From Candidatus Thorarchaeota archaeon (GTDB lineage: Archaea > Asgardarchaeota > Thorarchaeia > Thorarchaeales > Thorarchaeaceae), in assembly GCA_003345595.1 (NCBI GenBank), contig PRDI01000058.1, positions 15,983 to 79,982 of the forward strand: a stretch of 64,000 nucleotides of DNA, written 5' to 3'. The notes beneath the pieces are model-generated. The model was not told where the DNA came from. It made no database searches and was given only the letters and a program-made list of their open reading frames with translations. Numbering within the stretch: position 1 is the stretch's first letter; the number at the start of each line of letters is the position of its first letter. The translations under genes and the position numbers were made by a program. Below are positions 15,495 through 45,812 of the stretch, piece by piece.

Positions 15495-15502
15495 GAGTAA
15501 TC

Positions 15503-19755: not shown

Positions 19756-19840
19756 GATGAAGTGGACCTCTTGCTATCTACGAAACGGGGTCATGCGCTT
19801 TTAAAAGCCTGATGTTCATCAAGGCGGGTGAGGCGCCCGG

Positions 19841-28722: not shown

Positions 28723-28795
28723 TTCTTCTGTTATAGACAGGCTTAAGGATGCGGTCCCATTCACCTGAGTCTGCACTCTGAGAGGACTGCAATTC

Positions 28796-29149
28796 TTGAG
28801 GAATGATCCGAGCTTCGAGGAAGGCTGGAAAATCGAGATGAGAAGAGGCCTCCTGGAGTATGCGGTCCTCGCAATAGTGAAGCGGCATCAAGAGGGTATA
28901 CACGGTTATGGCATTGCAAGGGAACTTGAGGAGAAGACGGATGGGCTGCTTGAAGTGAAGGAGGGAACGCTCTACCCCATTCTGCACAGGTTACGAGAGG
29001 ACAGACTTCTCAACGTTAGGGCTGAGAGGTCGGACACAGGACCGAGTCGAAAAGTGTATGTGCTTACGGGTGAGGGTGACCGCGTCTATCGTGAGCTCTC
29101 TTTCATGCTTGCTAGGATGTATGAGAAGCTGGAGGCATTGTCTCGATGA
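28796..29149 (+). CDS. PadR family transcriptional regulator
   Basis: RRGLLEYAVL, HGYGI, EGTLYPILHRL, GPSRKVYVLT. Confidence 0.93.
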   Translation: MRNDPSFEEGWKIEMRRGLLEYAVLAIVKRHQEGIHGYGIARELEEKTDGLLEVKEGTLYPILHRLREDRLLNVRAERSDTGPSRKVYVLTGEGDRVYRELSFMLARMYEKLEALSR

Positions 29150-29604
29150 GCGAGCGAAACGTCGAAGACGTGATAGGCGACTATGTGAAGAGAACCCGGA
29201 AGGTCTTGCCCAAGGGGCGAGAAGCCGAAGATTTACTGGATGATCTCAGGAATCACATTCTCGATTCACTCGCCGACAAGAGTGAACAGAAACCCGGAGT
29301 CAGCCAGCTGGAATTGGTTGGAGAGGTCCTGAAAGAACTTGGCGATCCGGAGGACATAGCTCGTGAGTTCGAGTCGACACACCCGGAGGAACCGGCTACG
29401 AGAAGACGCAAGACGATCAGGCTCGTTGCGAGACTAGTGTTTGCAATAGCGGTCGTAATTGTCGCTGCAGCTGTGGTTTCCAGTGTTCCACTTGGACAGC
29501 AGGAAGAGCCCTCAGTGGACTTCTTCACTGCCTTTATCGTTCTAATGGTGTTTGCGGTTGCAGAGTGGTATGTCAGAGCGTGGCAGACTAGATCTGTAGA
29601 TTAG
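29146..29604 (+). CDS. PadR-associated membrane protein (helical N-terminal domain + 2 TM)
   Basis: DLLDDLRNHILD and LGDPEDIAREF are typical of the permease-prefix/HAAS-type domain. ATGA overlap with PadR. Confidence 0.75.
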   Translation: MSERNVEDVIGDYVKRTRKVLPKGREAEDLLDDLRNHILDSLADKSEQKPGVSQLELVGEVLKELGDPEDIAREFESTHPEEPATRRRKTIRLVARLVFAIAVVIVAAAVVSSVPLGQQEEPSVDFFTAFIVLMVFAVAEWYVRAWQTRSVD

Positions 29605-29712
29605 CCCTTTGCACTGTGCTTTCACACCTTGGCTCTCTGCAAGCCACGCACCACTCTGTGTCAAGCCTGTAACACACACAAACAAATGCTTGCTGTGACC
29701 TCGTCGCAGAGC

Positions 29713-29810
29713 GAGTGGAGGCTTCACTAGGGATTCACTAGTTCTAGAGCACCCTCAGTAACTCCTCGACACCCCTCCCTACCTATTTTGACAGCGTGAA
29801 ACCTCCACTC
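29713..29810 (-). other. Candidate structured RNA / inverted-repeat element between convergent genes
   Basis: 15-bp inverted repeat 29713-29727 / 29796-29810 whose only mismatch is a U-G wobble on the minus strand. Stacked 6-bp helix 29728-29733 / 29776-29781. Confidence 0.45.
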
Positions 29811-29900
29811 CTCCTTTACTCACAACCGAGCTGATTGGGCACAAACACCTTGGTCATGGCAGGCAGTCCTGCGCGGCTGGATCAAGGTGTCGTGAGAGTA

Positions 29901-30500
29901 TCAGAACTCGACCGTGTGTATCTGGTAGAAGTCCTTAGGATGATCACATGCAGGACACTTCTCGGGCGGACTAGTTCCTTCGTGGATGTAGCCACAGTTC
30001 GAACACCGCCACTTAACCTTGGTTTCACGCTTGAACACGCGACCTTTGGCTATGTTGTCAGCCAGCATCGTGTAGCGCTGCTCATGCCATGACTCCGCTT
30101 TCGCAATAGCCTTCCATACTGCGGCAATCTGCGTGAACCCTTCTTTCTCCGCAGTTTCCGCAAAATTGGGATAGATTTGCGAGGTTTCCAAATGCTCTCC
30201 TGCGGCGGCAGCCCGAAGGTTCTGCTCGGTCGTACCGAGCGGCCCTGTCGGGTACTCCGCTTCAATCTTGACCATAGCGCCAGTCTTGTTGTCTTGAAGC
30301 AGCTTGAAGAATCGGGACGCATGCTCTCTCTCTTGGCCCGCTGTTTCCTCGAAGATGGCCGATATCTGGATGAACCCCTCCTTCTTCGCTGTGCTTGCAT
30401 AGTAAGTGTAGCGGTTCCGAGCCTGCGACTCGCCAGCGAAAGAAGCTAGGAGATTCTTCTCAGTCTTTGATCCTTTCAGTTCCACTTTGATTGCCTCCAT
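29901..30500 (-). CDS. rbr: Rubrerythrin
   Basis: FAGESQARNRY, EREHA, ESWHEQRY diiron motifs; C-terminal CSNC...CPAC rubredoxin-like site. Confidence 0.96.
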   Translation of the reverse strand: MEAIKVELKGSKTEKNLLASFAGESQARNRYTYYASTAKKEGFIQISAIFEETAGQEREHASRFFKLLQDNKTGAMVKIEAEYPTGPLGTTEQNLRAAAAGEHLETSQIYPNFAETAEKEGFTQIAAVWKAIAKAESWHEQRYTMLADNIAKGRVFKRETKVKWRCSNCGYIHEGTSPPEKCPACDHPKDFYQIHTVEF

Positions 30501-30630
30501 TCGTCCCCCAACAAACGTACTCGCCAGCTGTGAATGCGTGTTTTCGGGGACAGAATGCGGCCGGCTGACAAACGTTCGCTATTAAGTATGACCGTACAGC
30601 ACAATCGCAATCCTAGAAAGTGCGAGCCTG

Positions 30631-31827
30631 TTATAGGCGAACCTTTGCAGCGATGGTTTCCGCAAGACGCTTGCAGTCTTCCAGTTCTTGACTTGTAGGC
30701 CTACCATGCACGTCGATTGTGGGCTCCAGAACCTCGAACTTTAGGTCTTCGAACTTGTCTTTCAGCCGCTTAACACCGCCGCCTCCCCATCCGAAGGTGC
30801 CGAACAGACCAATCGGTCTTTTGGCAAATCTCTTTCCTTCCATCTCGTCAACGAAAGCCCAGACTCTCGGAAATGGATACGCATCATAGGTTGGAGTGCC
30901 GATGGCTATGACGCCCGCCCGCAAGCTATCGGTGACGACCTTGCTCATGTCTGAGTAGGAGAGGTTATGGATCTTGACCGGGACTGAAAGATTCTCAAGT
31001 TCTCTCTTGAGTGTCATGGCAACCCTCTGAGTAAAACCATACATTGTTCCGTATATGATCGTGCATCCCTTCTCAAGATCGGGTGAACTCCACTCTGAAT
31101 ACCGATTGATGATCCACGTCGGATCCCTGCGGTACACCGGGCCGTGACTAGGAGCGACCATCTTCAGATCAATGCCCAGTCCAGTGACCTTGGCAATAGC
31201 TTGCTGTATGAACTTGAGGTAACTAGTGATTATCACTGAGAGATACCTCCTGCTCTCGGACTCCACCATACGCATGTCGATTTCGTCGTCAAAGTGGTTT
31301 CCATTCAGTGCACCGAACGAACCGAACGCGTCACAGGAGAACAGAATATGGTCTTGCATGTCGTAGGTCATCATGGTTTCAGGCCAGTGTAGAAACTGGG
31401 TGTGCAAAAACTTCAAGGTACGCTTACCGAGGGATAGTTCCTCCAGATCGGTGACTGTCTTCTCCCTCAGTCTGACATCGTAGAATGACTTCTGCATATC
31501 TGATGCCTTGGGCGTGTAGATCATGGTCGCGTTTTCCGCAAGCTTGGCGATGTGAGGAAGCGCACCAGTGTGGTCTGGCTCCATGTGATTCATGATGATG
31601 TAGTCAATCTTGGCTGGGTCCACTACCTCTCTTATGTTGCCGATCCATTCGTCTGCCCAAGGTTCCTTGACGCACTCAATCAAGGCTATCTTGTCATCGA
31701 CGATTAGGTAGCTATTGTATGATACGCCGTGAGGGAGTGCCCAAAGGTTCTCGAAAAGAACTGTGTGGTGGTCATCTACGCCAACATAGTATACACCTTT
31801 GACAATCTCTCGATTCACATGATTCAC
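30631..31827 (-). CDS. fprA: Flavodiiron protein (FprA family)
   Basis: HMEPDH, LHWPETM, SCDAFG, PSHG, then flavodoxin-like YGTMYGFT and GTFGWGG. Confidence 0.95.
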   Translation of the reverse strand: MNHVNREIVKGVYYVGVDDHHTVLFENLWALPHGVSYNSYLIVDDKIALIECVKEPWADEWIGNIREVVDPAKIDYIIMNHMEPDHTGALPHIAKLAENATMIYTPKASDMQKSFYDVRLREKTVTDLEELSLGKRTLKFLHTQFLHWPETMMTYDMQDHILFSCDAFGSFGALNGNHFDDEIDMRMVESESRRYLSVIITSYLKFIQQAIAKVTGLGIDLKMVAPSHGPVYRRDPTWIINRYSEWSSPDLEKGCTIIYGTMYGFTQRVAMTLKRELENLSVPVKIHNLSYSDMSKVVTDSLRAGVIAIGTPTYDAYPFPRVWAFVDEMEGKRFAKRPIGLFGTFGWGGGGVKRLKDKFEDLKFEVLEPTIDVHGRPTSQELEDCKRLAETIAAKVRL

Positions 31828-31958
31828 CTACGAGTAAGTCACGGTCTGAATCCCTCATAAAAGCTACACGGCGTGGCAAAGAGAGCCAGGAACAGTGAGG
31901 GCCGGGTCGTGCCGCAGTCCAATAAGGGATAAGTGCATGCGTTGCTTGTCAGTGTCAC

Positions 31959-32555
31959 TTGTCGGAGCTGTGCGCATTGAACAAACGCTCCATTGCTGCC
32001 GTCATGATTCTAGCTGCTGCGATGGCAGCGTCCACACTACTCTCTGTCAGCAGCTTGGGTGTACTACCCTTCGACGCAGCTGACTTTTGGATGGAACCCT
32101 TTTCCTCGCGCACCTCGTATGCAGACTGCAATGCCGGGGACGTGCTTCATGGGACGTTTGAAGTCATACAGGATGGCGACCTCTTCCCGGGCGATCAGAC
32201 CAAGTACGATATTTGGCTGATTGAGGGTGTTGACTTCTTCATCTTTGATGAGTCAAACTATAATCTTTGGCTCGAGGGAAGCTATGCCATAGCCGCCTAT
32301 GCGAATGAACGAGTGTCTGCGCTATCCTGGAGCGTCCGGGTTCCGGAGTCCGGGCGCTGGTATGTTGTATATTCCAACGGGGCAGTATTCAGGAAACATG
32401 TGACGGCAATGAGTTCACGTTCAGGAAGTGCGTGGTTGGCCTTTCTTGTTGTTCCGTCTGTGTCAGTAGGCTGCTTCCTGTTGGGCTTCTTCTTGCTGGG
32501 CCGATTCTGGAGTGGCAGACAGTCGGTGGTTCCGACTGGGGAAATCCGACACTGA
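31959..32555 (+). CDS. Membrane-anchored beta-sandwich protein, p24/GOLD-like
   Basis: N-terminal signal-like segment, beta-rich domain ending GRWYVVYSNGAVFRKHV, single C-terminal TM, short tail. Confidence 0.55.
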   Translation: MSELCALNKRSIAAVMILAAAMAASTLLSVSSLGVLPFDAADFWMEPFSSRTSYADCNAGDVLHGTFEVIQDGDLFPGDQTKYDIWLIEGVDFFIFDESNYNLWLEGSYAIAAYANERVSALSWSVRVPESGRWYVVYSNGAVFRKHVTAMSSRSGSAWLAFLVVPSVSVGCFLLGFFLLGRFWSGRQSVVPTGEIRH

Positions 32556-32603
32556 TGGTGTGAGTAGCTGGAAACTCAGTCTGGTCCAGCTTTCTCACAA
32601 GAT

Positions 32604-33032
32604 TCAGGTGGTCTGTTGCTGGGGTGCACTTTCCTTGGCAGGCTCATGCAGCGCCTCATCGATGAGCTGTACTGCGTTTCTTCCGAGCAATCCACCAAAG
32701 CCTCCTAGCAGAGCTCCCAACAACACACTGATGACTATCACGAGCATTCCCATTCCACTTAGTCCCAAAAGACCGATGAAGAAATCAGCTATTTCCAGTG
32801 CAGATGCTGAAAACGAGAGGTATGCAAACAATAGGGTCCAAGCGATAGCCACTCCGACGAAACCAACCAAAAAAGCACGCTTGGAAGTCCGCGTGAACAG
32901 CGACCCGAGTATCCCGGCGATCAGCATGGTCACCCACGATCCACTCAGCTCGAGCACAATGGCGAAGATGGTCGCGATGATGATTGCGGGAACAAGTTTC
33001 AAAGATGGGAATATGTCGTCAATCTTACGCAT
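32604..33032 (-). CDS. Small Gly-rich multi-pass membrane protein
   Basis: About 4 hydrophobic segments with a GGFGGLLG motif. Co-oriented 11 nt after the acylase stop. Confidence 0.7.
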   Translation of the reverse strand: MRKIDDIFPSLKLVPAIIIATIFAIVLELSGSWVTMLIAGILGSLFTRTSKRAFLVGFVGVAIAWTLLFAYLSFSASALEIADFFIGLLGLSGMGMLVIVISVLLGALLGGFGGLLGRNAVQLIDEALHEPAKESAPQQQTT

Positions 33033-33043
33033 TATGTCACCTC

Positions 33044-35620
33044 CTACGGAACAAACGTCACAGTCCTCTCAATCATCGTGTTCGTTGTGTCTGCCGCGCG
33101 AAATGCTTCAGCTGTATTATAGAAATACAAGAGGTTGTAGCCGTACTGCTGAGTTGCTTCGTCAAAAGCATACCACAAGTCGAAGAGATCGTCCCAGTGA
33201 GGACTGAAGAGATTGCCACTCTGTCCTGCTGGAATCACACCATAAGACATCTGAATGTTGCTCAGGTCTGCGACCATCCTCCATGAAGGTCCGTGTGTCA
33301 CTCTCCAGCCGCCTGCCGCGTTCAAGGTGTTCTGCCCTCGGTGGGGTCCACCACCGATGTACGTAAAATCGGCAAGATGGTCAACGAAGACTCTGTGGTG
33401 GACGCCGTAGACCCAATTGGCTGGATCATTGCCGAAGTCTCCAATCATATCATTGAGAGCACGATGAAGAGCCCTGACAAGTATTTGATTCCGGGTTTCA
33501 ACAGTCCCATTTGTCGTGTGGTCATCAAGATAGTATGCATTGTTATCCTTGATGATCTTCTCGATTATGGGTGTTCGAGACAGCGGAAGCGCGGAGTCAA
33601 TCGATCTGACCTCATCAAGGATCTCATAGTGAATTGCATCGCGGAGGTACATCCAGAAAGTGGGAGCGACTATGTCGGTATCCATGACGTAGTCCCAGTC
33701 GTCCAACCAGTTCACAGCCTGCTCGATACTGGTGTTGACATCTCCTGCACTAACCCAGGCGTACGTTACATAGGGCACGATCTCCTCAGCTCTGACTTCG
33801 AGTGAGTCTGCTTGGTACTGCTTCATATCATCGACGGTCACATTGTTGTTGGTTGCTAGGAGGTGGTCGATGCGACGTCCCCTGTAGCCGTCGTCAAAGG
33901 GTCCCAATAGCTTGAATCCGTAGGAACCGAAATCGATCGATTTCTGGTTTGCGGACTGCAAATAGCCCTGTGACGGGTTCACAGATCGAGGAATCAGGGC
34001 ATAGGGGATGTTGCTCACCATGCCTATCGAGTCGTTCAGTGCGGTGACCGGGTACTCACCTGTGTATCCCGATCTGATAGGGAACCTGCCACACACGGTT
34101 ATCGCTATGTTGCCCGCGTCATCGGCATAGATTATGTTTTGGGGTGGACTGTCCCACCAGTAGAGCGCATCATAGTATCCTTGGAGGTCGTTGGCTCTGT
34201 TTAGCTTGCTGATGGCAAGCAACGCAGTGGAAACATCACTTCCCGTCCAGTTCATTGCTATGTTGGACCCTGTGTCGGAGTCGAGCCCATATGTGTCCAC
34301 GACAGAATCGATGAGCGGTCCATGAACAGAGATCTTCACATCAAACGGGACATCGGATCCTCCTTTCACTCTGATCGTTTCGTCCACGACCTGGAATGCT
34401 CTGTACTGACCATTGTACATGTACGTGCTCGAGTTAGCGGGATTGAGCTGCTCAACAAACACATCGAGCACATCCGCGCCAACATTAGTGAAGCCCCAAG
34501 CGATATGGGCCGTGTGTCCCAGAATGACTCCTGGTAATCCGGGCAAAGTGACTCCAGTAACGTCTATCTCTCCGGGCACGACAATATGAGCCTCGTACCA
34601 GAGCGATGGGGCTTGTAGCCCTAGATGCGGGTCATTGGCCAGGATGGGCTCCCCGGTAGCCGACCTCAATCCGCTGACCGCCCAGTTGTTGCTGCCCAGC
34701 ATCTCCTCTTCGAACGGTCTGATGACGTCTTCGATGACTGCCATCAGAGCGTCCAGCTTCTCATTCGGTATGATAGCTTTGTCAACCATTGTCTGGCTGA
34801 CTAGACCCTCTGGGTTCGGGGTAGCAGGTTTTCCGCCAGGCGCATCGGGATATGTCGCCAAACTCAGGTTTGTTTGCTCGGGCACTATCGGCACATCGAA
34901 GGGCATGACATCAGGGAAGAGTTCATCATACATTGTGTCGTTGTCAATGGTTTCTCTCACCCACTGGCGATAGAAGTCCTCGAAGCCACCCGACAAGCCC
35001 CACGCCATCATCTCTGACCATATGAAGATGTCCAATCGAGTCCAGTGTACGGGTGTGAACCCGAGGATCTTGAACTCAATGGGTGTCATCGCGCTTGACA
35101 TGGAGTCGATGAATGCGTTTACCCCTTGGACCTCCGCGTCAACCACACTAAGGGAATATGCGATATCAGGATTGGCTTGGTGAGCTATACACCAGTCGAG
35201 GGTATTCTGAGCGGACCTTGCCAGTCCAATAGTACGGTAGAATTTGTCGCTACTGACGCCACGAGAACCGACGATTTCACTAATCCGCCCTGAGGCAAGG
35301 TAGTTCTGCAACACCATCTGGAACAACCTGTCCTTGGCATGAAGGTACCCCAAGGCCATGTAAGCATCTTCGGCTGTGTCACCGTATATGTGAGGGATAC
35401 CCCACTGGTCGATAATCACATCGACCTGCGCCGTGAGACCCGGCAGTTTCACTGTTTGCGCGGCAGGGTTCCTAGCCCCAAATCCCACATCAAAAATCCC
35501 GCCAATAGGCTGTATGATGCCCAGACCACCTGCCAGCGGTCCAATGGGCATGGTCAGAAGCACTATCAATACCGCAGGACCGACAAGCGACAGGCAAAAG
35601 CTGATGATTCTCTTCTTCAT
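33044..35620 (-). CDS. Penicillin acylase family Ntn hydrolase (S45; penicillin/AHL acylase-like), membrane anchored
   Basis: DQWGIPHIY, DRLFQM, catalytic GSNNW, ANDPHL, SANQ, GQSGN. N-terminal TM. Start moved to ATG 35620. Confidence 0.92.
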   Translation of the reverse strand: MKKRIISFCLSLVGPAVLIVLLTMPIGPLAGGLGIIQPIGGIFDVGFGARNPAAQTVKLPGLTAQVDVIIDQWGIPHIYGDTAEDAYMALGYLHAKDRLFQMVLQNYLASGRISEIVGSRGVSSDKFYRTIGLARSAQNTLDWCIAHQANPDIAYSLSVVDAEVQGVNAFIDSMSSAMTPIEFKILGFTPVHWTRLDIFIWSEMMAWGLSGGFEDFYRQWVRETIDNDTMYDELFPDVMPFDVPIVPEQTNLSLATYPDAPGGKPATPNPEGLVSQTMVDKAIIPNEKLDALMAVIEDVIRPFEEEMLGSNNWAVSGLRSATGEPILANDPHLGLQAPSLWYEAHIVVPGEIDVTGVTLPGLPGVILGHTAHIAWGFTNVGADVLDVFVEQLNPANSSTYMYNGQYRAFQVVDETIRVKGGSDVPFDVKISVHGPLIDSVVDTYGLDSDTGSNIAMNWTGSDVSTALLAISKLNRANDLQGYYDALYWWDSPPQNIIYADDAGNIAITVCGRFPIRSGYTGEYPVTALNDSIGMVSNIPYALIPRSVNPSQGYLQSANQKSIDFGSYGFKLLGPFDDGYRGRRIDHLLATNNNVTVDDMKQYQADSLEVRAEEIVPYVTYAWVSAGDVNTSIEQAVNWLDDWDYVMDTDIVAPTFWMYLRDAIHYEILDEVRSIDSALPLSRTPIIEKIIKDNNAYYLDDHTTNGTVETRNQILVRALHRALNDMIGDFGNDPANWVYGVHHRVFVDHLADFTYIGGGPHRGQNTLNAAGGWRVTHGPSWRMVADLSNIQMSYGVIPAGQSGNLFSPHWDDLFDLWYAFDEATQQYGYNLLYFYNTAEAFRAADTTNTMIERTVTFVP

Positions 35621-35820
35621 GCATCTCACCTTGAGCCCCGAAGTGTGGTCTAGAAGAGTGTGGTTCGCAACTGATAAGTCTTGGTGAAGGCAAATCTCGG
35701 GGGCATGTCCTGTTTTATGCAGAGGTACCCGAATTATCCAGTGCAATGGGCTGGTTCTCCATGTTTGTTGACAAGCTTTTTCAGTAAGATAGATGGCCGG
35801 TAACGAGGTCGTGAATCACC

Positions 35821-36867
35821 ATGGTAAAGACCGACGGATTTAGAGGTAGAGATTTCATAACTCTACGAGAGTACACAAAGGAAGAAGTCGAAACGATTCT
35901 GGAGGTCGCACTAGACCTCAAGAAGAAGTTTGCAGTAGGGGAGCCGCACAAGCTTCTCGACTCAAAGACGCTGTTCATGATATTCTATAACCAGAGCCTT
36001 CGGACACGCAACTCGTTCGAAGCAGGGATGACGCAGCTCGGAGGACATGCCCACTTCTTGGACCCTGACAAGATATACGCTCCAGCGTTGGAGGGTGATG
36101 AGAAGGCGTACTCTACCGAGAGAGTGGCCGATGTTGCTAGGGTTCTTTCGAGAATGGGACATGGGATATCGATTCGCTGCTATGGTGACCCGGTAGGCTG
36201 GGTATATGGTCGGGCAAACGAGATAATCAGGAACTTCGCCCATTGGTCCAGCATTCCGGTCATCAACATGGAAGATGACAAGTACCATCCATGTCAGGCA
36301 CTGGCTGACATATTGACTGTCAAGGAGAAGTTCCACACTTTCAAGGGCGTCCGATTCGTGATGTCTTGGGCCTACTCCCCATCCGTCCACAAACCGCTGG
36401 CTGTACCGCAGAGTGCGATAATTGCAGCGACCAAGATGGGCATGGACACAGTGCTGGCTCATCCTAAAGGCATGGAACTTGATGACGACATCATCAAGCA
36501 ATGCAAGGTCTATGCTCAGGAGAACAACAGCAGCTTTGAGATCATGAATGATATGGATGAGGCATTCAAAGGTGCTGATGTGGTTTACCCGAAGTCTTGG
36601 ACATGCAAGCAATTCATACCACCTTTCAACGCCAAGCCAGAGCTTGACAAGGCAAAGCTCGTTTTTGACAAGAACAAGAGCTGGATTTGCGATGACGCGA
36701 AGATGAAGATTGCTGGACCCAAGGCTCTCTACATGCATTGCCTGCCATGTGACCGCGGTTTCGAGGTTGCGAACTCAGTGATTGATGGCCCTCAATCCAT
36801 CGTCTGGGATCAGGCCGAGAACAGACTGCATGCACAGAAGGCTGTCATGGCGCTGACCATGCGCTAG
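35821..36867 (+). CDS. Carbamoyltransferase, YgeW/N-acetylornithine-type (knotted) rather than canonical OTCase
   Basis: SLRTRNSF, HPCQ, WAYSPSVHKPLAVPQS, YPKSW, HCLP. Lacks the SMG motif. Confidence 0.85.
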   Translation: MVKTDGFRGRDFITLREYTKEEVETILEVALDLKKKFAVGEPHKLLDSKTLFMIFYNQSLRTRNSFEAGMTQLGGHAHFLDPDKIYAPALEGDEKAYSTERVADVARVLSRMGHGISIRCYGDPVGWVYGRANEIIRNFAHWSSIPVINMEDDKYHPCQALADILTVKEKFHTFKGVRFVMSWAYSPSVHKPLAVPQSAIIAATKMGMDTVLAHPKGMELDDDIIKQCKVYAQENNSSFEIMNDMDEAFKGADVVYPKSWTCKQFIPPFNAKPELDKAKLVFDKNKSWICDDAKMKIAGPKALYMHCLPCDRGFEVANSVIDGPQSIVWDQAENRLHAQKAVMALTMR

Positions 36868-36980
36868 AAGCGATAGTCTTACACAGCATCGGGGTCACGT
36901 GCGGCGGCCGGAGTCGACCAATGTCGTGACCTCCGATACACCTTAAAACGCCACGTTCTTCTTCACTTTGCAGTGATTCT

Positions 36981-38012
36981 ATGAAGAGTCTTTTTGGACG
37001 CGACCTAATAACAACGCAGGAATGGAGTGTTGATGAGCTCGAACGAACCTTGGCTCTCGCTTTCGAGTTCAAGGCTCGCCGCTTCGACCACCCATTAAGG
37101 GACTGTCTTGACCGCAGGACGTTCATGATGTTCTTCTTCAATCCTAGCGTAAGAACTCGACAGAGCTTCGAGTGTGCGGCCACGGAACTTGGCGGGCATG
37201 CGCAGTTCCTCGAACCCAAGACGATGAGGCTCAAGACGGAAACGAGTGCAGGCGAAACAGTCCAAGATGCCGCGAATGTGATGAGTCGCTATGCCTGTGG
37301 GATTGGCATCCGGACTCTTGAAACCGCAGTTGACCGCTACGGTGAAGGTGACGATCTTCTCCGGGAGTATGCTAAATGGGCCAGCGTGCCTGTCATCAGT
37401 ATGGCGCATGACAAGTTTCACCCTTGTCAGGGATTGGCCGATGTCATGGGCATGAGAATGCACGGAGGCAAGAACCTGAAGCGCAAGAAACTTCTACAGG
37501 TATGGGGAAAGGGAGCTCTGGTAAGATCTTGGTGTTCAGTGCAGGAGAGTATTCTGATCAACACCCGGCTCGGACTTGACGTGACCTTGGCTTATCCCGA
37601 AGGATACGACTTGGATCCACAAGTCACCAAATGGTGCGAGGACAACGCTGCCGCATCAGGCGGCCGATTCGAAATAGTTCACGACCTAGAGGAAGGGTAC
37701 AAGGGAGCTGACTTCGTCTACAGTCGCAACTGGCAGAGTCCCGCTTTCTATGGAGACATGAAGAAAGTGGGTGCCGACGCGGCCAAGAAGAAAGAGATCG
37801 AGATGGCGGCCAGGTATGATGACTGGATCTGCAGTAGGGAGTGGATGTCGAGAACGAACAACGCGTTCTTCATGCACTGCGGACCTGTAGACCGCGGGGC
37901 AGAGGTTACAGACGAGGTCTGCGATGGACCGCGATCCATAGTGTATGATATAGCAGAGAACCGGCTGCATGTTCAGAAAGCAATAATGGCCCTGACGATG
38001 GCTCGCACCTAG
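36981..38012 (+). CDS. Second, divergent carbamoyltransferase
   Basis: SVRTRQSF, HPCQ, YSRNW, HCGP (instead of HCLP), AENRLH. Confidence 0.85.
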   Translation: MKSLFGRDLITTQEWSVDELERTLALAFEFKARRFDHPLRDCLDRRTFMMFFFNPSVRTRQSFECAATELGGHAQFLEPKTMRLKTETSAGETVQDAANVMSRYACGIGIRTLETAVDRYGEGDDLLREYAKWASVPVISMAHDKFHPCQGLADVMGMRMHGGKNLKRKKLLQVWGKGALVRSWCSVQESILINTRLGLDVTLAYPEGYDLDPQVTKWCEDNAAASGGRFEIVHDLEEGYKGADFVYSRNWQSPAFYGDMKKVGADAAKKKEIEMAARYDDWICSREWMSRTNNAFFMHCGPVDRGAEVTDEVCDGPRSIVYDIAENRLHVQKAIMALTMART

Positions 38013-38147
38013 CATGGTTAGGACGTCCTTGGAGCCGCAAGGGCTGAGAACCGGTCACGTGGCAAAACACGCGACTGATAGTCACAGGGCATTCTAGTCC
38101 TGACACCGTGGCGAATCAGGATGACGGGACCTACCGGCCACCACAGG

Positions 38148-38432
38148 CTACCATCCGCCCTCGGTCGTATCAAACATCTTCAATATGAAGTAAGCAATGA
38201 CACCTACAATCAATATTACCGCAAAGAATGCAACCACGAATGATGGACCTGATAATTCATTAAACCAGACGAGCGGCCCAAAGATCTCCCTAAAGTGGAC
38301 TACACCGGTAAGATCTCCTATCACTATCAGAATGAGAGGCATTCCAACGAGCATTGCTATTGCCATCGCCATGTATCCTGCTCTTCTGACCCAGGCGCGC
38401 TTCGAATCAAGCTGTTGTCCGTCCGCCATCAC
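38148..38432 (-). CDS. Small 2-TM membrane protein, paralog of the C-terminal module of 38475..39422
   Basis: W..RAGY...DLTG...F.EIFGP...FNELS...F..VI......FILK.F...EG.W is shared with the upstream gene. Confidence 0.8.
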   Translation of the reverse strand: MMADGQQLDSKRAWVRRAGYMAMAIAMLVGMPLILIVIGDLTGVVHFREIFGPLVWFNELSGPSFVVAFFAVILIVGVIAYFILKMFDTTEGGW

Positions 38433-38474
38433 GCTCTGCTCCTGAGATGACTATGAGAATCGTCAAGGAATCGT

Positions 38475-39422
38475 CTACCAAGTACCTTCTTTCGCGCTAA
38501 AAGCTTTGAGGATGAAGAACATCATGGCTGCTGTAAGAATAATGACAGCAAGGAAGCCTGCTAGAAAGGCGTTTGACGACAACTCATTGAAGAATACATA
38601 AGGACCGAAAATCTCACTGAAGGTATTTGCACCTGTCAGGTCTGCGACCATGACTAGGAAAAATGGTGCCGAAACAAACACAAGTGCTGCGATGGAAAGG
38701 TACCCTGCACGCTTAAGCCAGAGAGATGTGGAATCGCGCGGCAGGGGTTCCGCCGGCGCAGTAACATGTGTTTGAGCTACGGGTTCTGCTGCCTTCGTCC
38801 CTCTCTTGAGCAACCTGTCGCGTAACGAGTCGTACCTGCTCCGCCAGTAAACCTTGAATCCAACCTTGCTGATGTCCTCCGTTCTTCCAAGCAGAACCTT
38901 GAGCACAAGGGCTGTAACAATCCCGGCAATCACCGCTGGTGTGAATGCAGCCAAGTTTCCGTAGAAGAGGAGGATGTTATATGCCGCAGCTCCTATGCGG
39001 AAACCAACTAGGGCGGCAAGCCAGTTGATGCGATTCCCGAAGATGCGAGAGCGAGTATGAAGATAGTAGGATCCCGCAATCATGGCAAAAAGCGAGAACG
39101 AAACTATATCAATTATGAACCATAGAACCCACCACTCTGTGTTGAGGGCATAACGAACAAGGGGATTGAACTCAAAGGCTGCACCCAGGTCGTGCCAGAG
39201 GAGGACCGTGTAGACAGCATCCACCAGACCAATCGGGGCAAGTGAGAAAACAAGATAACGAACCCATTTCTCTTGCCACCAGAGAGAGAACATCACTCTC
39301 GGTGTCATCGTGGATAGGTCCTTTTTTCTCTTAGCCATTTGCACCCTTTTGGCACCCAAATCCCTGTACATCGCTAGTCGTATAAAAGCTTCCAACTGTG
39401 CTGTTCTCAGCTGTGACTGCAC
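38475..39422 (-). CDS. Membrane protein with DUF5658-like N-terminal domain and duplicated C-terminal 2-TM module
   Basis: DAVYT...FEFNPL motif; multiple TMs. Confidence 0.7.
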   Translation of the reverse strand: MQSQLRTAQLEAFIRLAMYRDLGAKRVQMAKRKKDLSTMTPRVMFSLWWQEKWVRYLVFSLAPIGLVDAVYTVLLWHDLGAAFEFNPLVRYALNTEWWVLWFIIDIVSFSLFAMIAGSYYLHTRSRIFGNRINWLAALVGFRIGAAAYNILLFYGNLAAFTPAVIAGIVTALVLKVLLGRTEDISKVGFKVYWRSRYDSLRDRLLKRGTKAAEPVAQTHVTAPAEPLPRDSTSLWLKRAGYLSIAALVFVSAPFFLVMVADLTGANTFSEIFGPYVFFNELSSNAFLAGFLAVIILTAAMMFFILKAFSAKEGTW

Positions 39423-39585
39423 GACTGCGCGACCGGCAAGTTGCTAAACTCAAGGTGGGAGAATTCTCTAAGGGTCTAGTCGCTGTATCAGACATATACA
39501 ATGTCATTCCGAACCTACCGAGCAACGAAAAAGAAGATTGGGCAGAGGATTGCGTCCTCTGCCTATACACTAGTTACCTGTTCCG

Positions 39586-41466
39586 CTACAACGTAAACCC
39601 TGTGGGGTAGGCCTTCCACATGTGGTAGAAGTACGGACCCGAGAGCATTGCGTTGTACACGTAACCGTTCATGTAGACGGCTTCAACATGGAAGTTCGTA
39701 GACTGGTATACCCATATGTAGGCAGCCTGGTCCACGATGGCCTTCTGGATCTTGCCGTAGAGAGTTATGCGGTCGGCTGGAACCAAGCTCTGAGCAGCGG
39801 TATTGATCCAGCCATCGACGAGAGTCGAGTTCCATCCTGCAGAGATGCCAAGACCGATTCTTCCAGCGTAGAGAGACGTGCTCTTCACGAAGGGAGAAGC
39901 GTAGTTGTCCGGATCAGCGTAGTCTGGTGCCCAACCAAGGAAGAAGAATGGTAGCTGCTTGTTGTTGAGCTGGTACAGATAGCTGGGCCATGAGAGCGCC
40001 TGCACTGTTACGGTGATAGGACTGGCAGGATCAGTTGCCGCGGGATCTGCCAAGATCTTCATGATGCCATCCTTCATGAGCAAACAGCCTTGCTCACGAA
40101 CAGTGTTGCCTACGTTGTAGTACAGCTCGATGCTGTAGGACATGTTGGCAAGAATAGCAGGCAAGCCTTCAGTCATGGCTTGGTTCCATTTCAGTACTGC
40201 TTGGTCTATGTCGTACTGATACATGTACAGACTGTCGTTGTGGCCGAACATGCCGGTCGGGATTGGTCCCTGGCACTGAATGCCAAAGCCGCTTATGATC
40301 GTGTCAATGAAGGTTTGGTAGTCAAATGCGTAGGAGAATGACTCCCTCAGAGACTTGATAGTGAATGGGCTCTGCACGATGCTGCCAGACTTGTTCAAGG
40401 TCGGATTCATGTTGAATCCGATGAACATCACGTTATACCCGGGCTCTCCGCACCATACCTTGAGCTTGCGGTTGAGGGATTTCAGAGTGCCGTCGCCGCT
40501 GTCACTAGTAACTCCGTTCCAGATGTAGCTGGCGTGGGTTGTCGGCCATAGGCCTACGTCGGTCGAGTTGGCCAACAGGTTCAGGATTCTGCTGCTGACA
40601 TCATTGTTCGTCTTGATCACTATGGTGTCGAGTGTGCCCGCCTCCGGGACGTCAGCTATCGCCGCGGTGGCTCTCCAGTAGTTGCTGACCTTGCTGAGCT
40701 GTATCACTTCTTCCGGTACCCAACTAGTGACATTGTACGGACCAGTGCCACAAGTGTGCGTATCGATGTACGTGTTGTGTGCCCCATAGGCAACTCCACC
40801 GTGCTTTGCAACCCATGTCGGGCTCATCTGGGCACCGACAAAGTAGGTAATCGCTGCAAGGAACGGGGCGAACTTGTAAGCGAGTCTCATCCTGATTACG
40901 TAGTTGCTCATAACGATGAGCGAACTAGAGTTCGCTACCCAGTTGTCATATGCTGCTGCGAACTCTGGGCTAGCACCGCCGTGGTCATAGAGAGCTGCCT
41001 CAACATCCCCGCCGCCCAGGATGGGTTCTGCAAACATCCAAACTGGTCCATCGGGGTCAAAGATCTTCATGGCCCTCTCGAAGTTCCACTTCACGCATGA
41101 TGCATTGAACGGGGTGCCGTCCTGGAATGTGACTCCCTGCCGTAGGGTAAACGTGTAGTTCAGACCATCGGCTGAGGTCACATAACTCTCAGCGAGCAGT
41201 GGTACAACAGGTTCCGTGTTATCGGTGTGCCATTCATATGTGTACAACGTCTCATAGCAATTGTAGGCTATCCATGAGCCGAAGGTTTCGTAGTCAACGT
41301 GTGGATCCAAGTACTGAGGCGTGCTGATTGTTTCCCAGATGAGTGTACCCTCCCTTGGAGGTGTGGGCGTCACGCCTGCAGGGCCCTTGGGCCATAGTAC
41401 GTATGCTCCTGCAGCACCGACTATGACAACCACCACTACGATGGCGAGTATCTGATTCTTGTTCAT
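39586..41466 (-). CDS. Family 5 ABC substrate-binding protein (peptide/nickel), canonical domain order
   Basis: N-terminal TM anchor, LDPHVDYE, PLLAESY, YTFTLRQGVTFQDGTPFNA, GTGPY, GWAPDYADP. Start moved to ATG 41466. Confidence 0.93.
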   Translation of the reverse strand: MNKNQILAIVVVVVIVGAAGAYVLWPKGPAGVTPTPPREGTLIWETISTPQYLDPHVDYETFGSWIAYNCYETLYTYEWHTDNTEPVVPLLAESYVTSADGLNYTFTLRQGVTFQDGTPFNASCVKWNFERAMKIFDPDGPVWMFAEPILGGGDVEAALYDHGGASPEFAAAYDNWVANSSSLIVMSNYVIRMRLAYKFAPFLAAITYFVGAQMSPTWVAKHGGVAYGAHNTYIDTHTCGTGPYNVTSWVPEEVIQLSKVSNYWRATAAIADVPEAGTLDTIVIKTNNDVSSRILNLLANSTDVGLWPTTHASYIWNGVTSDSGDGTLKSLNRKLKVWCGEPGYNVMFIGFNMNPTLNKSGSIVQSPFTIKSLRESFSYAFDYQTFIDTIISGFGIQCQGPIPTGMFGHNDSLYMYQYDIDQAVLKWNQAMTEGLPAILANMSYSIELYYNVGNTVREQGCLLMKDGIMKILADPAATDPASPITVTVQALSWPSYLYQLNNKQLPFFFLGWAPDYADPDNYASPFVKSTSLYAGRIGLGISAGWNSTLVDGWINTAAQSLVPADRITLYGKIQKAIVDQAAYIWVYQSTNFHVEAVYMNGYVYNAMLSGPYFYHMWKAYPTGFTL

Positions 41467-41645
41467 GTCTTCCTCCTTCTTTTGTGTTGTGTAGCACAGA
41501 TGTCCTTGCGGACCAAGTAGGTCGCATGTTGGAACCCTAGGGGTCCCCGGTGAAATATGGACCTCCGTGCTCCAAACAACAAGCACCTTTACTCGTCATG
41601 CGTCTAATATAGCTTACTACTCCCCAGATGACCAGAATGGCGCAC

Positions 41646-41731
41646 CCTGCAATCTTGCAGGAGTCAAAAGCTATTATAGATGTGCAAGAGCATGCACATC
41701 ATAGGCCGGGTTCAACCAAATACTTAAGTAT
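41646..41731. promoter_or_regulatory. Palindrome cluster in the divergent SBP/dpp promoter
   Basis: CCTGCAA-TC-TTGCAGG 41646-41661; GATGTGCA-N6-TGCACATC 41679-41700; ATACTTAAGTAT 41720-41731 (TATA-like). Confidence 0.45.
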
Positions 41732-41809
41732 CCTGCAAAACCCGCCTCACTAGCTCACAAAGTCTAGAGATTCGGCCCCCGGAATCAACAGGTGCCTGAG
41801 GTCTAACAG

Positions 41810-42874
41810 ATGAAGCTAAGGGATTTCATCCTGAGGAGAGTTCTACTTGCTATACCAGTTATCTTTGGCGTACTTACGATAACTTGGTTCTTGTCTTATG
41901 TTGTGGGAGACCCGTTGGCCATGTTCATAACAGAACGGACCAATCCGGCGGCCATCCCCGGAATAATCCAGGATCATGGGTTTAACGAGCCTCTGGTCAT
42001 TCAATACTTCCTGTACTTGAGAACCCTGCTGGCTGGCGACTGGGGCGTGAGCTACTCAACGGGTGGTGATCTGCCAGTTCTTACTGTCATCGCACGCAAG
42101 TTTCCGGCTACAATCGAGCTTGCCATTGTCGCCATGGTCTTTGCGGTAATTCTTGGCGTTCCTCTCGGCATACTCTCGGCCACAAGGAAGGACAAGCCGA
42201 TTGATCACTTCACGCGAGTCTTCTCCCTAGCTGGCGTTTCAATGCCAATTTTCTGGTTCGCTCTCCTGCTGAAGTATGTCTTATTCTATCAGTTCTCTGT
42301 TTGGGGCCTACCCTACCTACCCTCGGGCGATAGAGTGGACAATGAGTTGTGGAAGACTGTTCTCCATAATGGAGTCGGCTACGATTTCACCAGCAGCATA
42401 ACTGGGTTTGTTCTTGTCGATTCCTTGCTGTATGGCCAGCCCATCCTGTTTGGGGATGCCGTGCTGCATCTTATTATGCCAGGTTTCTGCTTGGGCTATC
42501 TGACGCTTGCTATCATCACGAGAATGATGCGTTCAAGTATGCTAGAGGTCATGAAGGAAGACTATATCACGTTAGCACGGTCCAAGGGGCTCACCGAACG
42601 CATTGTGATATACAGGCACGCTTTGAGAAATGCACTGATTCCGACGGTGACAGTCATTGGCTTGGCATTTGGAGGTCTTATGTCAGGTGCTGTATTGACG
42701 GAAACTATCTTCAACTGGCCTGGTCTGGGCCGATGGGCGACGCAGGCAATTCTAGTTTCAGACATGGCTGCGATCAACGGCTTCGTGCTCCTAGTGGCCT
42801 TCATCTTCGTAAGCGCGAATCTGATAGTCGACTTGACATATGGAGCGCTTGATCCTCGCATAAGGTACGGATAG
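41810..42874 (+). CDS. dppB: Peptide ABC transporter permease (DppB/OppB)
   Basis: FPATIELA, RMMRSSMLEV, YITLARSKGL (EAA loop), HALRNA, TETIFNWPGLG, DPRIR. Confidence 0.95.
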   Translation: MKLRDFILRRVLLAIPVIFGVLTITWFLSYVVGDPLAMFITERTNPAAIPGIIQDHGFNEPLVIQYFLYLRTLLAGDWGVSYSTGGDLPVLTVIARKFPATIELAIVAMVFAVILGVPLGILSATRKDKPIDHFTRVFSLAGVSMPIFWFALLLKYVLFYQFSVWGLPYLPSGDRVDNELWKTVLHNGVGYDFTSSITGFVLVDSLLYGQPILFGDAVLHLIMPGFCLGYLTLAIITRMMRSSMLEVMKEDYITLARSKGLTERIVIYRHALRNALIPTVTVIGLAFGGLMSGAVLTETIFNWPGLGRWATQAILVSDMAAINGFVLLVAFIFVSANLIVDLTYGALDPRIRYG

Positions 42875-42886
42875 GAGAAGAGATCG

Positions 42887-44632
42887 ATGACCGTCAGAGG
42901 AGACAATGGCAACGATCAAGGAGAACAAGAATCAATCGTTGTGCCGGGACTGGTTCACAGAGTCTTTCCGTCCCTCCATATTGTTCTGTGCCTCGCAGCG
43001 ATATCTCTTGGTGCTGCGTACTTAGTAGGCAATTTCGTTGCCTGGTTCGCGAACTCGTTCATGCATGAACTGGGGTTCCAGCTTCCATCGCTGCTGATTG
43101 GCTGGCCACTTCAGGCATTGCTGCTTGTCGTGATTGGCTACATGAACCTGAAATCTGGCAGAGCGATTTCTAGAGGGGACGCTTGGGCATATTCATCGTC
43201 GCTCTACATGAATGCCGTCACTGGCGTGATTCTGCTTACCATAGGACCATTGGGGCTGCTACCTGCGGTTGGCGTCTTCGCACTGGTGCTTGCGTTGTTT
43301 GCGCCCAGTGTGAAGTCCTACTGGTACAGGGAGTTCCGGGAAGACATGGGACCTCGCGGCAAGGAGTTGAGATTCAGTTTCCACCTTCTTCGCAGAAGCC
43401 CCCTTGTCATCGTTGGGATTCTGATTGTAGCCGGGTATATTAGCGTCGCATTTCTAGCCCCGTGGATCACACCCTACGGGCCAGAGGAACGTATCTGGAA
43501 CGATGCGAATCTGGCTCCCGGCACGCCCGCAGGAGAAGCGAAGGCCAATTCTCTGATACTGTTCAGTAACTACTCAGCAGACATCAGCATTTACCCCGAG
43601 TATACGAGGGGAGAGGTTCAGGTCGGTCCAGAAGAAGTGACCACTTCGTTACCTCCGATTATCGCGTTTTCTGGCTACGTTCGTGACACGGGTAACGACA
43701 ATCTGACTAATGTCCTAGTACACACCGCAGTCTACAAACTGAACTTGACAACTTTCGATTCTCTTAGTCCGAGCCTGCGAGAATTGTACCTCGTCAAGTC
43801 AGTAGAAAAGGCCATGCTATCGCGTCCGAACATAGAAGTGAACAATTCGCCTTCGACCTATGTCTGGGTTGTCTGGTTCGTCGCCAGCAACAAGACTGTG
43901 CCGTGGATTGTGGACACGGTTGTCACCTTGGACTACAATCGGTACTACCCCATTCACTACTGGGGGACAGACAACTCAGGTGGCGACATATACAGTCGCA
44001 TTATATGGGCTGCTCAGGTCGACTTGAGAGTATCTCTCAGTGTTGTGCTTGTGGCGTTGGCATCAGGTGCTCTAATCGGAGCTGCATCGGGCTACTTTGG
44101 CGGCAAGCTGGATGAAATGGTGATGAGAATCACTGACATATTCTTCGCCTTCCCCGGCTTGATTCTAGCCATGGCCATTGTAATGGCCTTGGGCACTCGT
44201 AATCTTGAGAACATATCTTATGCACTGATGATCACTTGGTGGCCAGTCTACGCAAGAGTAGTACGTGGGCAGGTTCTTTCGGAAAGGGAGAAGCTTTATG
44301 TCGAAGCTGCTCGTTCAATTGGAGCAAGTGATAGCCGGATCCTGCTTTCTCACATAATTCCCAATACTATCCAACCATTGATTGTGCAGGCCACAATGGA
44401 TACTGGCGGTGTCCTCCTGACAGCCGCAGGACTCTCCTTCATAGGGTTCGGTTCCGCCGCTGGCACTGCAGAATGGGGCCTGATGATCTCGCAGGGGCAA
44501 TATTACCTGCTCAATTATCCATGGGAGTGCATGTTTCCGGGGGTGGCCATACTCATGATAGCATTGGCTCTGAATCTCGTTGGTGATGGGATTCGTGACA
44601 TCCTCGATCCCAAGCTAAGGCGGAGAGGGTGA
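42887..44632 (+). CDS. dppC: Peptide ABC transporter permease (DppC/OppC) with N-terminal TM extension and large loop insertion
   Basis: HYWGTDNSGGDIYSR, YVEAARSIGAS, HIIPN, LSFIGFG, DILDPK. Confidence 0.92.
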   Translation: MTVRGDNGNDQGEQESIVVPGLVHRVFPSLHIVLCLAAISLGAAYLVGNFVAWFANSFMHELGFQLPSLLIGWPLQALLLVVIGYMNLKSGRAISRGDAWAYSSSLYMNAVTGVILLTIGPLGLLPAVGVFALVLALFAPSVKSYWYREFREDMGPRGKELRFSFHLLRRSPLVIVGILIVAGYISVAFLAPWITPYGPEERIWNDANLAPGTPAGEAKANSLILFSNYSADISIYPEYTRGEVQVGPEEVTTSLPPIIAFSGYVRDTGNDNLTNVLVHTAVYKLNLTTFDSLSPSLRELYLVKSVEKAMLSRPNIEVNNSPSTYVWVVWFVASNKTVPWIVDTVVTLDYNRYYPIHYWGTDNSGGDIYSRIIWAAQVDLRVSLSVVLVALASGALIGAASGYFGGKLDEMVMRITDIFFAFPGLILAMAIVMALGTRNLENISYALMITWWPVYARVVRGQVLSEREKLYVEAARSIGASDSRILLSHIIPNTIQPLIVQATMDTGGVLLTAAGLSFIGFGSAAGTAEWGLMISQGQYYLLNYPWECMFPGVAILMIALALNLVGDGIRDILDPKLRRRG

Positions 44633-44638
44633 GCATAA

Positions 44639-45799
44639 ATGTCTCAGTCTCAAGACCTTGTGCTTTCCATAAAAGGCCTGACGACGAATTTCTACACCTA
44701 CGAAGGTGTCGTCAAAGCACTCGATGGCATCGAGCTCAGCCTCAAGCGGGGTGACACCATGGGCGTAGTCGGTGAAACCGGTTGCGGCAAGTCAGTCACC
44801 GCCAAGTGCGTTCTTAGGCTTATTGAGCCGCCAGGTCGCATTGACGGGGGTCAGATCCTTTTCTATGACCGGGACCCCAAGACGGGTGAAACCCAAGAGA
44901 CTGACATCGTCCAGCTTACTCCTCTGGAGATGCTGAGCATACGTGGAAACAGGATTGCAATCGTCTTCCAGGATCCCGCGACTTATCCAAACCCTGTCTT
45001 CAGGATCGGTGCACAGATAGCAGAGGTTGTGACGTTGCACCAGGACCTGGGAAGAGAGGCCCTGGAAGTGAGGATTAAGGAGCTGGAGGAGTCTCTCAAG
45101 AACTCCCCTTCGCCCGAACATCAAGCCAAAATCAGAGAGCAGATTGAACACTACGTGTCGATGCTGGAGAACCCGCCCAAGCCAGATCGCAAATACGCGC
45201 GAAAAGCCGCTTGGGCCAAGGCTGTCGATATGCTTAGACTCGTAAGGATGCCTTCTCCCGATCAGATCGCCAACCAGTATCCACATGAGCTTTCTGGGGG
45301 CATGAGGCAACGAGCACTCATCGCGATGGCGCTGGCCTGCAATCCATCCATTCTCATTTGTGACGAGGCAACGACGGCCTTGGACGTTACTGTTCAGGCC
45401 CAAGTTCTCAATCTTCTGAACATACTCAAGAAGGAGATAGGCGCTTCAATCTTGATAATCACGCATGACCTTGGTGTTGTTGCTGAAACGTGCAACTCGG
45501 TCACTGTGATGTATGCAGGGACGACAGTGGAGTCAGCTGGTACGAAACAGTTGTTTGAGAATCCGGTGCATCCATACACAATTGGTCTTCTCACTGCGAT
45601 TCCAAAGCTCCATGAGAACAAGGAGCGGCTGGATCAAATACCGGGTACGGTTCCGAACTTGATCAATCCGCCAACAGGCTGCAGATTCCATCCGAGATGT
45701 GCGTTCGCGACAGACATATGCGTGAGTGATAGACCTTCTCTTGAGGAAGTCCTGCCCGGGCACTACGTAGCCTGCCATCATCCGCAAGGGAATCTATGA
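44639..45799 (+). CDS. dppD: Peptide ABC transporter ATP-binding protein (DppD/OppD)
   Basis: GETGCGKS, FQDP, YPHELSGGMRQR, CDEATTALD, HPYT, GCRFHPRC, VACH. Confidence 0.95.
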   Translation: MSQSQDLVLSIKGLTTNFYTYEGVVKALDGIELSLKRGDTMGVVGETGCGKSVTAKCVLRLIEPPGRIDGGQILFYDRDPKTGETQETDIVQLTPLEMLSIRGNRIAIVFQDPATYPNPVFRIGAQIAEVVTLHQDLGREALEVRIKELEESLKNSPSPEHQAKIREQIEHYVSMLENPPKPDRKYARKAAWAKAVDMLRLVRMPSPDQIANQYPHELSGGMRQRALIAMALACNPSILICDEATTALDVTVQAQVLNLLNILKKEIGASILIITHDLGVVAETCNSVTVMYAGTTVESAGTKQLFENPVHPYTIGLLTAIPKLHENKERLDQIPGTVPNLINPPTGCRFHPRCAFATDICVSDRPSLEEVLPGHYVACHHPQGNL

Positions 45800-45812
45800 G
45801 GAGGAGCAAAGC

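Follow-up and report, generated by a model that had tools for sequence, protein, structure and literature searches.

Anaerobic, reductive degradation of urate was solved by two studies in 2025 (PMC12507026; bioRxiv 10.1101/2025.04.24.650524). In this pathway, urate is converted to 2,8-dioxopurine by XdhD or XdhAC, the six-membered ring is opened by YgfK together with SsnA, and HyuA opens the hydantoin to yield 2,3-diureidopropionate. The carbamoyltransferase YgeW then phosphorolyzes one ureido group of 2,3-diureidopropionate, and the resulting carbamoyl phosphate is used by YqeA to make ATP; the other ureido group is hydrolyzed by YgeY, and YgeX converts diaminopropionate to pyruvate (PMC12507026; bioRxiv 10.1101/2025.04.24.650524). 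A 2025 commentary describes the pathway as restricted to bacteria (PMC12990295), and Li et al. colored SsnA neighborhoods by PF00185 as 'YgeW' across phyla; we searched the literature for a variant of the urate pathway with two transferases and for carbamate kinase (CK) in Thorarchaeota, and found no paper on either. Here, we compare with this system two tandem carbamoyltransferase genes in a 64,000-nucleotide stretch (hereafter, the window; contig PRDI01000058.1, positions 15,983 to 79,982, assembly GCA_003345595.1) of the genome of a Candidatus Thorarchaeota archaeon. An earlier note on this sequence treated the YgeW substrate as unresolved, a statement that became outdated when 2,3-diureidopropionate was established in 2025 (PMC12507026; bioRxiv 10.1101/2025.04.24.650524). 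The two genes most likely encode separate catabolic carbamoyltransferases that represent two uncharacterized families, A and B, rather than enzymes of arginine synthesis, as they are publicly annotated. Most likely, the two enzymes cleave urea-like groups from a product of such breakdown to gain ATP, because both families adjoin CK in purine or uric acid breakdown clusters of many anaerobes.

Gene 1 (family A; positions 35821-36867, plus strand; 348 aa, P0001) and gene 2 (family B; 36981-38012, plus strand; 343 aa, P0002) are intact open reading frames (ORFs), the products of which are 39% identical to each other and both match the OTCace_N and OTCace domains (PF02729, PF00185; E-values of 1e-34 to 1e-40). 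All motifs quoted in the earlier note are indeed present, namely, SLRT, HPCQ, WAYSPSVHKPLAVPQS, YPKSW and HCLP in gene 1, and SVRT, HPCQ, WGKGALVRSWCSVQES, YSRNW and HCGP in gene 2, with SLRT or SVRT in place of STRT; a motif check of both proteins found no DxxxSMG ornithine loop in either, as the note had it. The carbamoyl phosphate motifs are retained in gene 1 (SLRTR, R119, HPCQ, HCLP and ENRLH) and in gene 2 (SVRTR, R111, HPCQ and ENRLH). The superfamily signature (SxRT, beta4 Arg, HPxQ, HxLP) is complete in gene 1 (SLRT, R119, HPCQ, HCLP), and gene 2 has SVRT, R111 and HPCQ, with Gly instead of the Leu of HxLP (HCGP), a position that is Met in the bacterial members (HPMP). Both proteins are predicted, from their full sets of catalytic residues, to be catalytically competent.

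The two genes encode distinct, non-canonical carbamoyltransferases with the fold of N-acetylornithine carbamoyltransferase (AOTCase) and with different acceptor pockets. Gene 1 has a YgeW-like, proline-rich loop along with K258, K191 and D311, and the likeness of this loop to Escherichia coli YgeW, which had been proposed from the gene 1 sequence, holds in an alignment with the actual YgeW protein (WAYSPSVHKPLAVPQS/YPKSW vs WAYSPSYGKPLSVPQG/YPKSW). The pocket of gene 2 is altered, with A142 in place of Glu/Gln and R249 in place of Lys, both invariant in 72 homologs; the 80s loop is 8 residues shorter and contains the invariant M82-R83-L84, and the 'Pro-rich' loop lacks any proline.

E. coli YgeW (YTCase, PDB 3Q98), a knotted-type carbamoyltransferase as A and B probably are, resembles both families in being tied to CK in purine breakdown clusters, and its catabolic, ATP-yielding logic would be that of the two families as well. 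With gene 1, it shares the Pro-rich loop (WAYSPS..KPL.VPQ), YPKSW (K270), K203 and D334, and S200 is likewise retained among the putative YgeW acceptor residues; however, Q160 is replaced by Glu, the 80s loop is different (Q98*), and the identity is just 32%. With gene 2, D334 is the one common feature, and Q160 is replaced by Ala. The N- and C-terminal helices and the long 240s insertion of YgeW are absent from both proteins, and the Gln of the YgeW 80s loop is conserved in neither. The Asp that follows HxxP (YgeW D334) is invariant in family A (D311) and in family B (D304) and is also found in CTC, a third carbamoyltransferase type described below, whereas AOTCase has Arg in this position.

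AlphaFold2 models built from alignments of 66 sequences for gene 1 and 72 sequences for gene 2 both have a mean predicted local distance difference test score of 95.3. For both models, the top superposition is with the knotted AOTCase 3kzk (template modeling (TM) scores of 0.89 and 0.88 and root-mean-square deviations (rmsd) of 1.9 and 2.2 Å for gene 1 and gene 2, respectively, over ~346 columns), compared with a TM score of ~0.80 and rmsd of ~3 Å or more for structures of ornithine carbamoyltransferase (OTCase). The loops of the knotted transcarbamylases, the extended 120s loop and the proline-rich loop, are both present in gene 1; gene 2 contains the extended 120s loop and a 'Pro-rich' loop of the right length that is proline-free.

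The AOTCase of Xanthomonas campestris (PDB 3KZC/3KZK), with which the two proteins share the extended 120s loop, is the best match by both fold and hidden Markov model, and gene 1 retains its E144 and K252 (as E151 and K258). These similarities are what could be expected if A and B were anabolic acyl-ornithine carbamoyltransferases of arginine biosynthesis, that is, variants of AOTCase or of N-succinylornithine carbamoyltransferase (SOTCase), the name given publicly to many of the homologs, a reading that we find barely credible. The top NCBIfam model for both proteins is that of AOTCase (NF003384), but both miss its curated cutoff of 288 bits, gene 1 at a borderline 284.4 bits and gene 2 at 261.0 bits, where a true AOTCase (L084) scores 402 bits. 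The OTCase, putrescine and YgeW models fall further under their cutoffs for both proteins: gene 1 and gene 2 score 256 and 212 vs 281 with the OTCase model TIGR00658, and 157/163 and 131/140 vs 500/453 bits with the YgeW models TIGR03316/NF005538. The AOTCase signature residues W77*, E92, N185 and K302 (PMC4581275), which we read from alignments to the Xanthomonas AOTCase with the help of the residues tabulated by Shi et al. 2015 (PMC4581275), are not kept in either protein. In gene 1, they correspond to A87 (with Y86 beside it), T99, P192 and Glu, with a SOTCase-like Pro at the N185 position along with the Glu at K302; gene 2 has L84 at W77, a gap at E92, no mapped counterpart of N185 and Glu at K302, and differs from AOTCase further in A142, R249 and the proline-free loop. 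The position of the succinyl-binding R278 of SOTCase (HCLPxxR) is occupied by Asp in both proteins.

Phylogenetic analysis bears on the same alternative. A profile of A, B and CTC was searched against 1.84 billion representatives, and trees were then constructed with the references E. coli YgeW, ArgI and PyrB, the true AOTCase, and the OTCase and aspartate carbamoyltransferase (ATCase) of the genome itself. The AOTCase/SOTCase clade, with a support of 100 in the Shimodaira-Hasegawa-like approximate likelihood ratio test (SH-aLRT), excludes both families, which form clades of their own (SH-aLRT 96 for A and 99 for B); YgeW and CTC form another clade (SH-aLRT 95), and all four clades are separate from the OTCases. 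The placement outside OTCase and AOTCase, for which the earlier note had proposed phylogeny as a check, is thus borne out for both families. The grouping of A with YgeW/CTC has an SH-aLRT of 94; approximately unbiased (AU) tests reject neither a sister relationship of A with AOTCase/SOTCase (p 0.64), a point in favor of the arginine connection, nor one of A with B (p 0.53). Because the branching order of the clades, unlike the clades themselves, is not well supported, we do not claim that A is an offshoot of YgeW. The genome already encodes a canonical OTCase (contig C106; STRT, HPCQ, DxxxSMG, HCLP), in addition to the ATCase (contig C27); the A and B genes are not in an arg cluster, with no arginine-pathway families among the 16 neighboring ORFs that were scanned (27370-46847; the scan for arg genes was confined to this part of the window); and the adjacency of CK in bacteria suits a catabolic function. 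We therefore reject the arginine-pathway reading on the grounds of the residues, the clades and the presence of the canonical OTCase.

Conservation within family A, as within family B, is 55-90% among Thor-, Heimdall- and Lokiarchaeota, and is equally high in Chloroflexota, Caldisericota, Elusimicrobiota, WOR-3, Myxococcota, Cloacimonadota, Armatimonadota, Spirochaetota and others, at least 8 bacterial phyla altogether. We clustered all ORFs of 80 loci around B, among which 22 bacterial loci are well flanked, with at least 3 kb on either side of B. CK is present in 21 of these 22 loci, A in 19 (adjacent to B and on the same strand in 14), and a pyridoxal phosphate (PLP)-dependent enzyme of ~490 aa, hereafter PLP490, in 14. 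The usual bacterial order is A-B-CK, and in the clustered loci, the median distance from the CK gene to the nearest transferase gene is 19 bp. CK also adjoins B in the Asgard family f22 and in some Asgard genomes. The richest arrangement, in Cloacimonadota, reads XDH-FeS-SsnA-YgfK-A-B-CK-PLP490-ThrC-like-XDH-FeS-FAD (XDH, xanthine dehydrogenase), where YgfK scores 1468 bits, CK is above the equivalog cutoff, and SsnA reaches 342 bits vs a cutoff of 444. The earlier note was right that CK and arg genes are not adjacent to the two genes in the window: no CK is encoded in the 64 kb, the sole copy in the genome residing on contig C101, and no arg family was found among the ORFs scanned. Given the 21 of 22 bacterial loci and the Asgard genomes mentioned above, the lack of a neighboring CK is a local feature only.

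Taken with the residues, this context makes it very probable that A and B act phosphorolytically, together with CK. The reaction would run in the direction R-NH-CO-NH2 + Pi -> R-NH2 + carbamoyl phosphate, and the carbamoyl phosphate would be converted to ATP by the CK on contig C101. The most probable substrates are the two ureido groups of 2,3-diureidopropionate, which differ chemically from each other, or those of its mono-ureido product; in the reductive urate (2,8-dioxopurine) pathway, 2,3-diureidopropionate is the intermediate in which the ring has been opened. Family A, with its YgeW-like pocket, would take the step of E. coli YgeW, and family B, with its rebuilt, more basic pocket, would replace the hydrolase YgeY, such that both ureido groups would end up in carbamoyl phosphate and yield 2 ATP instead of 1; PLP490, encoded on contig C24, would replace YgeX in acting on diaminopropionate. 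We lean, by a modest degree, toward this specific assignment of the two groups of diureidopropionate, with A in the role of YgeW and B in that of YgeY. The earlier proposal of undescribed carbamoyl acceptors seems overstated because the context points to the reductive-urate ureido intermediates that are described for YgeW; it remains true that families A and B themselves are uncharacterized.

Genome searches are consistent with the replacement of YgeY by B. In five genomes with A and B (four Cloacimonadota, one Caldisericota), we found neither YgeY, at a threshold of E<=1e-20, nor a CTC ortholog, and the CTC query gave its top matches with A (45-47% identity) and B (37-39% identity); the same YgeY query found no YgeY in a sixth such genome (L033), which has no third transferase. 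As a positive control, this query retrieved YgeY at 79-100% identity from three genomes that carry CTC. CTC, an uncharacterized type of 324-327 aa found in Cloacimonadota and Asgard clusters, always follows YgeY (L048:6384-8591; L064, L067, L073, L075) and scores above the cutoff of no curated model. It resembles A and B in occurring in the same clusters, in having the same PLP partner and in the HxxPxD Asp, and is 41-47% identical to family A. It differs from both in its short, YgeW-type 80s loop with Gln (MQIAHGE), the Gln at the E144 position and the invariable adjacency to YgeY; it has HALP and lacks the YgeW insertions. Thus, unlike the CTC genomes, the A/B genomes without CTC also lack YgeY.

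The other component of the proposed module, PLP490, resembles cysteine synthase (E-value of 1e-15), with N- and C-terminal extensions, and is labeled just 'PLP-dependent enzyme' in the Atlas; we found no characterized relative. An orthologous relationship with YgeX was considered and ruled out, as only a 46-residue stretch is common to the two proteins. PLP490 (cluster 5) occurs in 23 bacterial loci and, among Asgard families, in 15/17 genomes of f1, 9/9 of f5 and 3/4 of f22; in the genome of the window, it is encoded at C24:6179-7654 (L087). A full cluster of the reductive urate type is present in an Asgard genome of another family, which is complete on a single contig (L091; G079:C1:3163000-3182999, ~5457-20001). 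Its layout is E. coli-like, with an XdhD-like protein (881 aa), YgeY (60% identical to that of E. coli), CTC, PLP490, a hydantoinase and an SsnA-like protein, and it further holds a DHO_dh/4Fe-4S reductase (similar to Clostridioides difficile UacX), a ThrC-like protein and an additional XDH. This layout, together with the searches for YgeY and CTC, suggests that PLP490 occupies the place of YgeX, and that CTC with YgeY is one solution and A with B, without YgeY, another. Compared with the YgeW/YqeA/YgeY/YgeX system of E. coli, the A/B module has two transferases, no YgeY, and an unrelated 490-aa PLP enzyme in place of YgeX.

Tandem genes, here as in the 14 well-flanked bacterial loci where A and B are adjacent on the same strand, raise the alternative of a hetero-oligomer, with mixed trimers or an A3B3 assembly acting on one substrate and one subunit lending its 80s loop to the active site of the other. 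In line with such an arrangement, neighboring subunits jointly form the active sites of enzymes in this superfamily (PMC4581275), and the 80s loop has a different set of invariant residues in A and in B. Yet each protein contains a full catalytic residue set, and B occurs without an A ortholog in three Thorarchaeota genomes that are 97-98% complete and belong to two genera, as well as in two Promethearchaeota (Loki-type) metagenome-assembled genomes (MAGs). The genes are often unlinked, too: A lies on another contig or 9-16 kb from B in several genomes (on another contig or 16 kb away in one genome each of Myxococcota, Spirochaetes and a further member of Thorarchaeota), and in Caldisericota, CK and PLP490 are located between A and B. 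An obligate A-B complex is unlikely because B is found without A in the three near-complete Thorarchaeota genomes, and we regard the hetero-oligomer as improbable. Of the earlier suggestion of two enzymes or a hetero-oligomer, the first part stands, as residues and clades mark two distinct enzymes, and the second is not required, given B without A.

The MAG that includes the window comprises 2.73 Mb and is 83% complete. Its CK (C101) and PLP490 (C24) are 58% and 57% identical, respectively, to the copies in the Cloacimonadota operon, the same level as for B, and sit scattered amid unrelated genes. We found no orthologs of YgeX, YgeY or YgfK (partial matches of 31-34% only for YgfK) and no XDH-family protein in this genome, and the XDH hammerhead domain is present in 0 of 21 Thorarchaeota genomes of the same family (this one and 20 others; 15 of high quality). 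All 21 genomes encode an SsnA-like protein that is always under the cutoff; here, the SsnA-like amidohydrolase gene is at C64:13176-14483 (L094:8153-9511; 355 bits vs a cutoff of 444). Neither the neighbors of this gene nor those of B in the B-only Promethearchaeota (Loki-type) loci provide a functional clue. A true D-hydantoinase is encoded in 7 of the 21 genomes, this one not among them. Because only the lower module is found in this Thorarchaeota lineage, the ureide would be imported or would come from an unrecognized upstream route. The most far-reaching version of the proposal, which we put forward tentatively and at less than even odds, is that B is a new specificity that replaces YgeY and, by saving both ureido groups of a purine-derived diureide in the form of carbamoyl phosphate, doubles the substrate-level ATP yield, and that Thorarchaeota run the lower module alone, without purine-ring enzymes, on ureides that their neighbors release.

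Upstream of gene 1, in the divergent orientation and separated from it by a 75 bp gap, is a gene for a penicillin-amidase (Ntn-hydrolase) family protein (33044-35746, minus strand; 900 aa); in 12 Thorarchaeota loci, such a gene lies no more than a few kb from B, and none was seen beside B in bacteria. Downstream, positions 38475-46847 encode a 315-aa unknown membrane protein, an SBP_bac_5 binding protein (39586-41586) and a four-gene ATP-binding cassette (ABC) importer of the Opp/Dpp type, which are syntenic with B across Thorarchaeota genera and not in bacteria; the importer may be a route of substrate uptake, or this may be plain synteny. The spacer between the two transferase genes (36868-36980, plus strand) is 113 bp long and, read directly, contains an A/T-rich 'ttaaaa' ~35 nt 5' of the ATG of gene 2, a candidate archaeal promoter that would be separate from that of gene 1.

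These neighbors, together with the lack of XDH-family genes in all 21 genomes and of a YgfK ortholog in this one, are compatible with another possibility, under which the same logic of phosphorolysis followed by CK applies to other imported ureido compounds in Thorarchaeota, such as hydantoin- or pyrimidine-derived N-carbamoyl amino acids, allantoate or ureidoglycine, or citrulline-type peptides. B is syntenic with the importer and the penicillin-amidase-family gene in several Thorarchaeota genera, true D-hydantoinase occurs in a third of the family genomes, and two bacterial loci (L033 and L034; an unclassified bacterium and WOR-3) consist of PLP490-A-B-CK-dihydropyrimidinase (495 bits), with no purine-ring genes within 10 kb. 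Nevertheless, the richest contexts are the SsnA/YgfK/XDH clusters, the position of PLP490 in the place of YgeX in the full urate-type cluster (L091) points to a diaminopropionate-like product, and the Thorarchaeota neighbors are conserved in that lineage only, so that plain synteny may account for them. We consider other imported ureides the chief alternative for the substrates, albeit an unlikely one.

Several observations weigh against a model in which A and B each take one ureido group of diureidopropionate. The immediate neighbors in the window are the penicillin-amidase-family protein and the peptide-type importer rather than purine genes, and, with no XDH-family domain, an SsnA-like protein under the cutoff and no YgfK, the source of a purine-derived diureide is unexplained here. 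Some Cloacimonadota clusters add YgeY (541 bits) and then CTC beside A and B, an apparent redundancy. A further Asgard family (13 genomes, all from a single genus) encodes, in convergent orientation, one transferase similar to B (50%) and one similar to A (56%) (L092; G096:C13, 8559-10653), and PLP490 was not found in any of the 17 genomes of that family that were searched. As 90 of 121 Asgard genomes encode CK, we rejected it as a phylogenetic-profile partner, and for the same reason, its presence alone is weak evidence. The kinship of A with YgeW is not robust, as the AU test allows A to group with AOTCase/SOTCase. Finally, for these uncharacterized families, what is observed comprises sequence features, fold, phylogenetic separation, gene neighborhoods and co-occurrence, whereas the chemistry of each step, and which ureido group falls to A and which to B, are inferred. 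As a separate observation on the CK searches, a single in-frame TAA/TAG is reported for many of the CK matches in f5, f12 and other Asgard families, probably because the match extends beyond the end of the gene.

If A and B are indeed catabolic carbamoyltransferases, thousands of database entries in the two families are misnamed as ornithine or N-acetylornithine carbamoyltransferase, and an ATP-yielding step is missing from the metabolic reconstructions made for Asgard archaea and for many uncultured anaerobes. In published accounts, the urate pathway belongs to bacteria, and one ureido group is cleaved by phosphorolysis and the other by hydrolysis; a variant with two transferases would yield twice the energy and would reach archaea. 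The rebuilt acceptor pocket of family B would then present a case for studying the evolution of specificity in an old superfamily.

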